In this document: positions 53,293 to 54,750 of the stretch, in pieces
How the letters are laid out: the number at the start of each line of letters is the position of its first letter
Position numbering within the stretch: position 1 is the first letter of the stretch
Notes under the pieces: model-generated
Databases searched by the model: none
The model's input: the letters and a program-made list of their open reading frames with translations, nothing else
Told to the model about the DNA's origin: nothing
Translations under genes and position numbers: made by a program
Source: Candidatus Nomurabacteria bacterium RIFCSPLOWO2_01_FULL_42_17
Lineage (GTDB): Bacteria; Patescibacteriota; Minisyncoccia; Phycocordibacterales; UBA9973
Length of the DNA stretch: 64,000 nucleotides
Direction: 5' to 3'
Assembly (NCBI GenBank): GCA_001785985.1
Contig: MFVE01000002.1
Span: 28,600 to 92,599, forward strand

Positions 53293-53578
53293 GCGATCGA
53301 CCGGACTTGAACCGGCAACCTCGTCCGTGCACTTATCCAATATTTTCATAAAGGCGTGGACTATATCTTCACCATAAGTTTTACCTTTTAGGTGCTTTGG
53401 TATCTAGTCTCTACGGCGCCCCCGACCTTGCATCGGGGTTCCCTCGGTATTCGCATGCTGTGATATTAAATCAAAGTTTAGCCTTCACCGATATCCCAAA
53501 GAGTTTCAATTCGTCCTTTCGACGAAAAGCTGCAGTAATCTACAGGGACGCGCTCTAACCAGTTGAGCTACGACCGCA
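53293..53578 (-). tRNA. tRNA-Asp (GTC) interrupted by a group I intron in the anticodon loop
   Basis: Exon 1 (53578-53544) gives the acceptor gcggtcg, the D arm tagctcaactggttagagc and cgtcc-cugu. Exon 2 (53330-53293) gives cac-ggacg, the T arm gccggttcaagtccggt and cgatcgc-g. The spliced anticodon loop is cuGUCac. Confidence 0.6.
53331..53543 (-). mobile_element. Group I intron (213 nt) in tRNA-Asp
   Basis: The conserved R element GTAGAGACTAGA and the S/P7 element GAAGATATAGTCC are present. The 5' exon ends in U and the intron ends in G. The IGS GCAG lies 9 nt into the intron and pairs with exon CUGU. Confidence 0.7.
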
Positions 53579-54230
53579 TTTTTATAAAACTTTCAAACCG
53601 TTCCTTCTTTCTCTTGAGAAACAAGGAACACTTATCATTATACATTATTTTGTATAAAATCAAAGAGTCTTTGATGCTATATTTCAAATCAAACCCTCTT
53701 TCTTTTTGAACCAAAGAACCCCCCAAAACTCCATATTTAAATAAAATTTCTTTTAAAACTACTAAAAATTCTCTGCTCCCTGAAGTAAATGCAGTACTTA
53801 TGGCATAAATTTTATGTATTCTTTGTTTATTCTTAAAACCAACCCATACTCCTCCATCCCCATCAAAATAACCTCGTAAAAAATCAGGAAAATACTTTTT
53901 TGGTATTTCCGGCAACAAAATTGTTTTGCTTTTTCTTTCTGTTAAACCAAGATGCATTAGGTCTTCACACATTTCTTTGCTTCCCACCTGCAAACGGTAA
54001 GATTGCTTTCGATTATTATATTTTTTCTTTTTTGAAATAATATGTTCTGAATTTATGACTTTTTTTATTTCCTCGAGTATTTCTTTATCATTAATTTGCA
54101 AAGACCAAAACCATGTGCCTCTTTTGGTAAAAATAATATTTCCATCCGCATAAATAAATCCCAAAACATATGCCATATCAGTGTTCCACTTTTTAAAAAA
54201 ATTCTTATTAATTTTTTTATATATTGGCAC
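53568..54230 (-). CDS. Free-standing double-motif LAGLIDADG homing endonuclease
   Basis: Two LAGLIDADG motifs are present (LGFIYADGNI and LRGYFDGDGGV) in a 220-aa protein. The 3' end overlaps the 5' end of tRNA-Asp by 11 nt. Confidence 0.8.
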   Translation of the reverse strand: MPIYKKINKNFFKKWNTDMAYVLGFIYADGNIIFTKRGTWFWSLQINDKEILEEIKKVINSEHIISKKKKYNNRKQSYRLQVGSKEMCEDLMHLGLTERKSKTILLPEIPKKYFPDFLRGYFDGDGGVWVGFKNKQRIHKIYAISTAFTSGSREFLVVLKEILFKYGVLGGSLVQKERGFDLKYSIKDSLILYKIMYNDKCSLFLKRKKERFESFIKMRS

Positions 54231-54294
54231 CTATGTATTATACCCTGTGACAGGACAATATACTAACCAATAATGTGGATAAAATATAACGCTG

Positions 54295-54367
54295 TGTCGG
54301 CGACAGGGATCGAACCTGTGACCTGAGGCTTATGAGTCCTCCGCTCTACCGACTGAGCTACGCCGAC
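54295..54367 (-). tRNA. tRNA-Met (CAT), elongator or Ile2 type
   Basis: Manual fold of the reverse complement: gtcggcg acceptor, anticodon loop cuCAUaa, and a GGTTCGATCC T arm. Confidence 0.75.
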
Positions 54368-54447
54368 ATAGTCGGAGAATAACATATTTAAGCCTTTTTT
54401 CAAACAAATAGTTGCAAAAAGTATATTTTAATGTAGAATATATCAAC

Positions 54448-54750
54448 AGCGGGATAGAGAAGAGGCATCTCGTAAGGCTCAACCAGTATGGGCCCCCTCT
54501 TGGGAAACCTTGAGGTGAGCATTCGCCAAATTCGGAGAAATCCTCTCTTGTAAAAGAAGGACAATTCCGAGCTAAATTTTTCGGCTTATACCGAAAATAA
54601 ATGTGTAGAGACTAGATGGCGGACCCCTTAATCTTTAATTTATTTTAAAGAAAGGAGATGGTATAGTCCAGACCACAAACACTTATGGTAGTGAAAACTA
54701 TAGTGGTAAAGCATAACCTTAAGACGGCCGTTCGATTCGGCCTCCCGCAA
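54448..54750 (+). tRNA. Initiator-like tRNA-Met (CAT) interrupted by a group I intron
   Basis: Exon 1 (54448-54479) gives agcggga, the D arm gaga-agaggca-tctc and taagg-cu. Exon 2 (54712-54750) gives cauaa-cctta, the T arm ggccgttcgattcggcc and tcccgca-a. There is an A1.A72 mismatch. The 3' end ...CGGCCTCCCGCAA matches the E. coli tRNA-fMet end CCGGCCCCCGCAA. Confidence 0.65.
54480..54711 (+). mobile_element. Group I intron (232 nt) in initiator-like tRNA-Met
   Basis: The R element GTGTAGAGACTAGA and the S element GGAGATGGTATAGTCC are present. The 5' exon ends in U33 and the intron ends in G. The IGS GGGCC pairs with exon GGCU. Confidence 0.7.

Follow-up and report, generated by a model that had tools for sequence, protein, structure and literature searches.

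A cluster of transfer RNA (tRNA) genes in a 64,000-nucleotide (nt) stretch of the genome of Candidatus Nomurabacteria bacterium RIFCSPLOWO2_01_FULL_42_17 (GCA_001785985.1, contig MFVE01000002.1, positions 28,600 to 92,599 of the forward strand; hereafter the window) holds two tRNA genes split by group I introns and, between them, a free-standing gene for a LAGLIDADG endonuclease that runs into the tRNA-Asp gene. Endonucleases of this family lie directly beside tRNA-Asp in hundreds of species, and carriage of the tRNA-Asp intron tracks both the endonuclease and a putative recognition motif. The best explanation, which we consider probable as a whole, is that the cluster has been colonised by three selfish elements, namely an intron at position 33/34, an intron at position 35/36 and a mobile LAGLIDADG cassette, with a proposed mechanism of cutting and immunity that would tie the cassette to the 35/36 intron.

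On the minus strand, read 5' to 3', an intact tRNA-Met(CAU) (54367-54294) is followed by a 63-nt spacer, an open reading frame (ORF) of 220 amino acids (aa; 54230-53568) and tRNA-Asp (53577-53291), the start of which (53577) falls inside the end of the ORF; a second CAU tRNA (54448-54750, plus strand) diverges from tRNA-Met. The split genes and the endonuclease gene are composed as follows, with the basis for each in brackets.

53542..53577, minus strand: 5' exon of tRNA-Asp(GUC), 36 nt, last nucleotide U35 (in-silico splice and ARAGORN)
53330..53541, minus strand: group I intron A, 212 nt, site 35/36, guide CUGCAG at 53530-53535, terminal G (RF00028 and covariation)
53291..53329, minus strand: 3' exon of tRNA-Asp, beginning CAC, discriminator G73, CCA not encoded (in-silico splice and ARAGORN)
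53568..54230, minus strand: free-standing single-chain LAGLIDADG gene, 220 aa, GTG start, stop codon TAG supplied by U8-A9-G10 of tRNA-Asp (Pfam, alignment and structure model)
54448..54479, plus strand: 5' exon of the initiator tRNA-Met(CAU), 32 nt, last nucleotide U33 (in-silico splice, ARAGORN and alignment)
54480..54711, plus strand: group I intron B, 232 nt, site 33/34, guide UAUG-GGCC at 54487-54494 (RF00028 and covariation)
54712..54750, plus strand: 3' exon of the initiator tRNA-Met, beginning CAUAA and ending in CCCGCAA (in-silico splice and alignment)

The two split tRNA genes, their introns and the ORF lie where a first-pass annotation of the sequence had placed them, apart from small corrections. 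ARAGORN at default settings missed both split tRNAs and found the intact tRNA-Met; run with its intron search, it recovered both split genes from the raw sequence and reported the Asp gene as tRNA-Asp(gtc)i(37,212). An Rfam E-value scan of 52700-55000 returned nothing credible besides the introns and tRNA.

The ORF at 53568-54230 (minus strand) matched Pfam LAGLIDADG_3 (PF14528, E 3.5e-12) and carries the two motifs YVLGFIYADG (D29) and FLRGYFDGDG (D125), of which both aspartates were invariant in 34 sequences. The GTG start of the 220-aa ORF is supported by its N-terminus (MPIYKK...), which is conserved among homologues; an exact look-up of the 220-aa product found no entry, the databases holding a 202-aa product that begins at Met19 (P0001). 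A sequence search of the PDB returned only I-Tsp061I (2DCH) with E = 0.087, and a match this weak made a fold search necessary. The AlphaFold2 (AF2) model (predicted local distance difference test, pLDDT, 91.3; predicted template modelling score, pTM, 0.89) matched I-Tsp061I in Foldseek with E 6e-11, as well as I-AniI, I-SmaMI and I-OnuI, and a single-chain pseudo-dimeric alpha-beta-beta-alpha-beta-beta-alpha LAGLIDADG fold is confidently predicted from this model.

In the protein database the endonuclease has 1750 homologues, and at least 514 loci were found among species-representative genomes, nearly all of them Patescibacteria. We fetched and examined 80 of these loci. In 79 of them tRNA-Asp is found at the ORF end or close behind it, the remaining locus (L065) ending at a contig edge, and tRNA-Met usually lies upstream of the endonuclease. 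The ORF overlaps tRNA-Asp in 54 of 67 evaluable loci, by exactly 10 nt in 33 of the 54, with U8-A9-G10 as the stop codon, and it is translation of the 5' end of tRNA-Asp that gives the homologues their C-termini (..K-M-R-S or ..C-G-R-S-S-T-G). The window shows the same 10-nt overlap, stop codon included; the first-pass annotation had given 11 nt, while its description of a free-standing double-motif LAGLIDADG ORF between tRNAs held. Judged from gene order in these genomes, adjacency to tRNA-Asp is a defining property of the whole endonuclease family. This large family of tRNA-Asp-linked cassettes is apparently undescribed: full-text literature queries and papers on the Candidate Phyla Radiation (CPR) yielded no description of it. 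LAGLIDADG enzymes of the same phylum and superfamily are known from CPR rRNA insertions (PMC11270868); unlike the window enzyme, these are encoded inside the insertions, and that paper does not mention any copies that are free-standing or linked to a tRNA.

Several lines of evidence indicate that the cassette moves. The conserved order of the cluster is GatA, p212 (a 212-aa ORF, in the window at 54756-55394), tRNA-fMet, tRNA-Met, the endonuclease where present, and tRNA-Asp. Endonuclease identity to the window enzyme ranged from 48 to 84% and was discordant with that of GatA (mostly 53-60%) and p212 (36-71%); locus L056, for example, shared 71% identity in p212 and 49% in the endonuclease, while L007 shared 46% and 81%, respectively. 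We further sampled nine related genomes through their p212 homologues, independently of the endonuclease. Seven of these had an empty site, consisting of tRNA-Met, 26-51 nt and tRNA-Asp, and four of the seven empty sites showed a clear promoter (TTGAAA-N17-TATAAT) directly before tRNA-Asp; of the other two relatives, one carried a LAGLIDADG gene and one (L206) a GIY-YIG gene in the slot. Frameshifted endonuclease pseudogenes were present in L011, L039, L066 and L105. A fixed slot, empty sites, pseudogenes and a discordant phylogeny are together the pattern expected of a homing element, and there is good support for a cassette that is site-specific and moves horizontally; we rate this conclusion much higher than the collaborative-homing reading discussed below. 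For site-specific DNA cleavage by the window enzyme itself, the sequence comparisons offer indirect evidence.

The GIY-YIG insertion in L206 (L206:3882-4314) consists of the native promoter, tRNA-Asp positions 1-11, a 35-nt hairpin, positions 12-22, the GIY-YIG ORF and an intact tRNA-Asp that is identical to the spliced tRNA-Asp of the window. It appears to be an independent precedent for the cassette design, with a remnant that looks fresh. Small GIY-YIG ORFs also adjoin intron-containing tRNA-fMet genes in L210 and L211. In five further loci (L019, L024, L031, L037 and L063) the endonuclease ORF ends in a duplicate 5' fragment of tRNA-Asp (TTGCGGnnGTAGCT) and the real tRNA-Asp follows 60-300 nt on, which suggests secondary insertions or imprecise repair at the junction.

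The same observations bear on whether the LAGLIDADG protein might instead be a domesticated host factor, such as a maturase for the tRNA-Asp intron, that no longer acts as an endonuclease. Its structural neighbours do include the bifunctional I-AniI and the bI3 maturase, and the gene is intact in most loci. However, a maturase would find no intron in half of the carriers, empty sites and pseudogenes make the distribution a patchy one, and the phylogeny is discordant with the flanking genes. The acidic positions of the LAGLIDADG motifs are catalytic and pure maturases often lose them, whereas D29 and D125 are invariant here. Since, moreover, a related published intron splices without protein (PMC13011429), we consider a maturase role very improbable.

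Upstream of the endonuclease gene lie the following features.

54237..54242, minus strand: TATAAT box, 6 nt upstream of the endonuclease start codon (possible promoter by its position and sequence)
54244..54270, minus strand: motif TTGGTTAGTATATTGTCCTGTCACAGG, colinear with the stretch of tRNA-Asp from D-loop to anticodon loop (alignment to the window's own tRNA)
54294..54367, minus strand: intact elongator-type tRNA-Met(CAU), upstream neighbour of the endonuclease (ARAGORN; Rfam tRNA, 68.8 bits)
54376..54439: divergent promoter-like sites, TTGAAA..TATTCT (minus strand, for tRNA-Met) and TTGCAA..TAGAAT (plus strand, for tRNA-fMet) (consensus scan)

The tRNA-Met at 54294..54367, which the first-pass annotation had rightly named as an elongator-type gene of the same cluster, is a conserved neighbour in most related loci. 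Of 82 endonuclease-carrying loci, 52 have the motif upstream of the ORF in the form of the consensus TGGTTAGtatAATnTCCTGTCACgtGgTATAAT, and in 30 of the 52 its distance is fixed; the background rate of the motif core is 2.8% per 80 nt. GGTTAG of the D-loop and CCTGTCAC of the anticodon loop both occur in it, colinear with tRNA-Asp and 8 nt apart as in the tRNA; its middle alone has been converted to a TATAAT box. The TATAAT box close to the start codon (54237..54242 in the window) stands at a fixed distance in about 30 loci. The motif may be either the remnant of an interrupted tRNA-Asp or an operator-like mimic of the target. In a sub-family of carriers the start codon comes directly after CTGTCAC, which suggests that an ancestral cassette entered the anticodon arm of tRNA-Asp about 3-5 nt past the intron site and would have brought a replacement 5' part with it.

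This arrangement would have consequences for expression. As the cassette replaces the native promoter of tRNA-Asp, the tRNA would have to be co-transcribed with the endonuclease, and a leaderless endonuclease/tRNA-Asp transcript is suggested by the TATAAT box, only 6 nt ahead of the start codon. With the stop codon inside the tRNA, RNase P would cut it off the message, and expression of the endonuclease might be held down in this way. A further potential role of the upstream motif is that of an operator for autorepression, as is the case for I-TevI, which represses its own expression through an operator.

The intron that follows the endonuclease, intron A, was aligned by the Rfam group I model RF00028 over its full length in a local search (42.3 bits, E 7.5e-9, 53337-53551, minus strand). 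This score counts against the class assignment, being below the RF00028 gathering score of 50 bits, so that the covariance-model check, which intron B passes clearly, fails for intron A on the gathering score, and its group I membership rests on covariation, the P1 U.G pair and the terminal G. In an alignment of 25 sequences (the window and 24 relatives from other genomes), compensatory changes occurred in 31 of 56 predicted pairs, with P2, P3, P4, P5, P6, P8 and P9 covered, while the P7 strands AGACUA and UAUAGUC, a pseudoknot outside the pair scoring, were invariant. The P1 U.G wobble at U35 was present in 25 of 25 homologues, all of which end in G directly before CACG. Excision of 53330-53541 (212 nt, not the roughly 213 nt first estimated; the 232 nt given for intron B was correct) yields a clean tRNA-Asp(GUC) cloverleaf with the loop CUGUCAC. 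We regard it as confirmed by these comparisons that intron A is a group I intron at 35/36 of tRNA-Asp, and close similarity to a published member makes subgroup IA likely. A metagenome search with the pattern CCTGTN{4,13}GCAGCTN{12,28}TGAAAC proved too loose, with 3 of 120 matches being real tRNA-Asp introns.

A boundary shifted by 2 nt, which is the one that annotation tools often give, would make the first gene a tRNA-Ala(UGC) with an intron at 33/34; this splice also gives a valid cloverleaf, an exon-end U and an intron-end G, and ARAGORN and tFind call Ala in some genomes (PMC13011429). Against this reading, the Rfam alignment pairs exon CUGU with the guide GCAG of intron A such that the wobble falls on U35 and U33 stands opposite A, an intact tRNA-Ala(UGC) is already present elsewhere in the window (19307-19380), and intron-less relatives with identical exons (L206 and L210) read CUGUCAC. 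The tRNA itself has G73, G3:C70 and C38, and the G3:U70 pair that Ala identity needs in E. coli is absent. With the 35/36 junction also sequenced after splicing in a homologous case (PMC13011429), we ruled the shifted boundary out and give the Ala reading next to no credence.

The tRNA-Asp intron was present in 37 of 79 determinable species-representative carrier loci (38 of 82 including the window and L210), and in 37 of the 79 the arrangement is that of the window, where the ORF ends 26 nt before intron A. It was absent from all nine relatives sampled through p212, eight of which have no LAGLIDADG gene, and the comparison of carriers with endonuclease-free relatives (0 of 8) gave a Fisher P of 0.019. 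A carrier allele was scored as matching the putative recognition motif when it read GGTTAG-N8-CCTGT, intron-containing alleles being scored after splicing. Among intron-containing carrier alleles 26 matched and 13 did not, and among intron-less ones 4 matched and 38 did not; the intron was thus present in 26 of 30 matching compared with 13 of 51 non-matching alleles (Fisher P = 1.3e-7). The deviating alleles read GGTTAGTAGC, GGTTAACA, GGCTAAAAC and similar. Among motif-matching alleles, the intron was found in 0 of 4 without the endonuclease and in 26 of 30 with it (P = 0.0015). In L026 and L038 the resident tRNA reads GGTTAA and the upstream motif still reads GGTTAG. If the enzyme recognises approximately GGTTAG-N8-CCTGTCAC, a carrier must protect its own tRNA-Asp, and the allele data fit this expectation.

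These data can be accounted for as follows. Introns A and B, both ORF-less ribozymes, must excise themselves from the precursor tRNAs to restore the loops CUGUCAC and CUCAUAA. The cassette takes the place of the spacer between tRNA-Met and tRNA-Asp and comprises a tRNA-Asp-like motif with TATAAT boxes and then an ORF that runs into an intact tRNA-Asp. The enzyme would cut the tRNA-Asp of an endonuclease-free genome within the stretch from the D-loop to the anticodon arm, and repair would copy the cassette along with a substitute for the 5' part of the tRNA, where the intron lies. Self-cutting would be avoided in a carrier either because the intron splits the site, as in the window, or because the D-loop or D-stem deviates from it. 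The intron would then be both an immunity factor and a passenger of the endonuclease, amounting to collaborative (trans) homing in a cellular tRNA gene. We hold the collaborative-homing reading, deduced from sequence, to be nearly as probable as its negation, and the wider proposal, that widespread LAGLIDADG cassettes and at least one GIY-YIG analogue invade tRNA-Asp with the 35/36 intron as a hitch-hiking immunity element, to be a tentative one.

Several observations weigh against this account. Four carriers (L053, L061, L069 and L210) have a motif-matching allele that is intron-less. Loci with and without the intron are intermixed with respect to endonuclease similarity (agreement between nearest neighbours was 0.55, chance being 0.50), and intron distances correlate weakly with endonuclease distances (rho 0.16, Mantel P ~0.11), so that intron and endonuclease form no tightly co-inherited unit. 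L110 has the intron without an endonuclease, and L105 has it beside a decayed endonuclease copy. The anticodon-stem sequences show no immunity signature between the allele classes. Should the target consist of the 22-bp motif and nothing more, the intron would take away no more than the outer 3 bp, perhaps too little to prevent cutting. With 8 genomes, the endonuclease-free group is a small one; the P values above overstate independence, as the loci are phylogenetically related; and the target site is putative, deduced solely from the motif and the correlations.

Some of these points favour a rival in which endonuclease and intron are neighbours that act independently of each other: the enzyme would act by intronless homing, an established pathway (PMC3984707), at the junction of the tRNA-Asp promoter and 5' end, a target split by its own insertion, the intron would be inherited or move by itself, the motif would be only a promoter, and the statistical link would reflect shared ancestry of tRNA types. 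The interspersed intron states, the weak distance correlation and the intron of L110 agree with such independence, as does the fact that about half of the endonuclease loci have an intron-less tRNA-Asp; in addition, empty sites keep a conserved promoter directly before tRNA-Asp, and it is this promoter that the cassette replaces. On the other hand, the motif keeps GGTTAG and CCTGTCAC at the exact tRNA spacing, which a promoter does not need, and retains GGTTAG where the resident tRNA is GGTTAA (L026 and L038), and among motif-matching alleles the intron stands in 26 of 30 from carriers and in none of the 4 from non-carriers. We consider independence unlikely, though it is the rival to be taken most seriously.

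The preferred account, in which cassette and intron interact, resembles collaborative homing as known from phages in that a free-standing endonuclease gene stands beside an ORF-less intron, and the intron lies within or at the edge of the recognition stretch and is correlated with carriage of the endonuclease, for which the evidence here is indirect. It differs in that the setting is a cellular chromosome, a tRNA gene and a LAGLIDADG enzyme instead of a phage protein gene; the cassette also seems to bring a replacement for the 5' part of its target, about half of the carriers have no intron, and the target is putative. The cassette equally resembles intronless homing, in which an endonuclease gene between conserved genes spreads by double-strand-break repair with co-conversion of the flanks and may have a partial duplicate beside the insert. 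SegB in the tRNA gene cluster of phage T4 is such a free-standing endonuclease, and fungal mitochondrial endonuclease elements, such as that of Allomyces atp6, carry a duplicate end of the invaded gene. In the present cassette, however, the duplicate is the 5' portion of a tRNA, what remains of it is conserved as a promoter-like motif, and the end of the ORF falls within the tRNA. Of the two origins put forward in the first-pass annotation, collaborative homing gained indirect support from the association of motif and intron, while escape of the endonuclease from an intron found none and was rejected: the ORF has nothing intron-like on its flanks, and the 80 close relatives are free-standing as well.

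Intron B scored 76.1 bits against RF00028 (54470-54689, plus strand), above the gathering score. Compensatory changes occurred in 35 of 66 predicted pairs of an alignment that spans the whole tRNA and intron, so that tRNA stems are counted too, and that comprises 7 sequences (the window, L029, L040, L056, L065, L080 and one unrelated intron). In P1, the U33.G pair was present in 7 of 7 sequences, and the intron's 3' end reads AG at the junction with CAUAA. The guide GGCC pairs with exon GGCU through the U33.G wobble (P1) and UAUG with CAUA of the 3' exon (P10). Excision of 54480-54711 gives a tRNA-Met(CAU) cloverleaf with the loop CUCAUAA. As first described, the two introns contain the R and S elements and the guides GCAG and GGGCC, and each 5' exon ends in U and each intron in G; the P1 alignments and in-silico splicing bear out the insertion positions 35/36 (Asp) and 33/34 (Met), and splicing restores canonical anticodon loops in valid Asp(GUC) and Met(CAU) cloverleaves. 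In a global alignment intron B was placed near no published sequence. Its string AGTCCAGACCACAAAC and its ending GT(A/T)GTGGTAAG, directly before CATAA, recur in introns classed IC3 (the tRNA-Ile2 33/34 introns of a 2026 survey); that survey found no IC introns in Patescibacteria tRNAs (PMC13011429).

The first-pass identification of the second CAU tRNA as an initiator was supported by its A1xA72 mismatch and A11:U24 pair, and by its orthologues in L040 and L080, which have the canonical C1xA72. The exons of L080, compared by eye and unaligned, resemble E. coli tRNA-fMet. The bottom of the anticodon stem has only two G:C pairs (G30 and G31), whereas initiators have three. From these sequence features the tRNA is probably an initiator, and its intron is present in 4 of the 9 relatives sampled through p212.

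The two introns themselves are ordinary further members of a recently published class, and the novelty of their sites implied at first pass was overestimated. Group I introns at 35/36 of Patescibacteria tRNA-Asp and tRNA-Asn were described by Nakagawa et al. (mSystems 2026, PMC13011429; preprint 10.1101/2025.07.03.662931, July 2025), who found that annotation tools miss them or miscall the tRNAs as Thr or Ala and demonstrated precise splicing in vitro, including guanosine-dependent, protein-free self-splicing of the tRNA-Asp 35/36 intron of GCA_001029755.1. That genome carries both Asp 35/36 and Met 33/34 introns, the latter, in tRNA-fMet, being a common site in agreement with previous studies, and the tRNA-Asp 35/36 intron was found in 3 of 95 complete Patescibacteria genomes (PMC13011429). 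Intron A is only about 66% alignable with the GCA_001029755.1 intron; its closest published relative, the tRNA-Asp intron of the Paceibacteria genome GCA_023898525.1 (178 of 199 aligned nt identical, 89%), lies outside the set spliced in vitro. GCA_030583725.1 is a third published genome with an intron-containing tRNA-Asp. Intron A shares with the published 35/36 introns the phylum, tRNA, site, ORF-less state and failure of annotation. The window, however, is from a different genome, on a contig from Rifle aquifer metagenomes, and in contrast to the present analysis the survey does not mention a flanking LAGLIDADG gene; endonuclease genes were sought inside introns only, were concluded to be rare in the tRNA introns of this phylum, and mobility was accordingly held to be limited (PMC13011429). 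Intron B shares the U33/C34 site, and P1 and P10 formed with the anticodon-loop exons, with the 33/34 introns of tRNA-fMet in cyanobacteria and others; unlike the published endonuclease-carrying 33/34 introns (two cyanobacterial ones with PD-(D/E)XK enzymes), which encode the gene inside, it is ORF-less and its host belongs to Patescibacteria. Given their structure, their splice sites and the published splicing of other 35/36 introns, we infer that introns A and B self-splice. With both, it is confirmed that essential tRNA genes of Patescibacteria escape standard tRNA finders.

The 3' side of tRNA-Asp showed further features. The last 22 nt of the gene (TCAAGTCCGGTCGATCGCGCAA) are repeated exactly 190 nt downstream at 53099-53120 (window 53099-53310, minus strand), and six other loci (L027, L034, L060, L063, L072 and L078) repeat the 3' end of their own tRNA-Asp 147-344 nt downstream; in sequence these repeats look like attL and attR of a very small or decayed integrated element. 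Between the copies, the G+C-rich stretch 53121-53250 (minus strand) is conserved, with homologues in L072, L041, L034, L060, L063, L073 and L036, and forms three hairpins with compensatory changes in 16 of 31 predicted pairs; by eye, a long-range helix of CCGGUUUGA with UCAAG(U)CCGG, involving the tRNA-like 3' end, was also seen. This stretch had no Rfam match and is a candidate for a new small RNA or a recombination-site structure. Large serine recombinase genes that overlap the tRNA end lie directly 3' of tRNA-Asp in L212 (L212:4438-6642, with a Prim-Pol gene in the same locus) and L216 (L216:4024-5640), from which the 3' end of tRNA-Asp appears to be an integration site for larger mobile elements as well.

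Elsewhere in the window, RNase P RNA (23586-23889, minus strand) scored 104.1 bits against a gathering score of 100, with several helices deleted; a reduced RNase P RNA is expected in Patescibacteria. In the corresponding clusters of related genomes ARAGORN reported two more putative intron-containing tRNAs, a candidate tRNA-Thr(GGU) with a 205-nt insert (L063:6202-6480) and one that it named His(GUG), whose insert would be 190 nt (L049:5804-6069).

If the proposed interplay of cassette and intron is true, collaborative homing would have its first case in a cell and in a tRNA gene, and the interplay would explain the spread of ORF-less tRNA introns in Patescibacteria, contrary to the published inference that the mobility of tRNA introns in this phylum is limited. 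Should the enzyme cut intron-less tRNA-Asp, the cluster would present a stage through which mobile introns naturally arise, here in a cell's genome and in a tRNA gene that is essential and present as a single copy. The family would then also be a new source of meganucleases that are compact (220 aa) and whose 22-bp target can be guessed.

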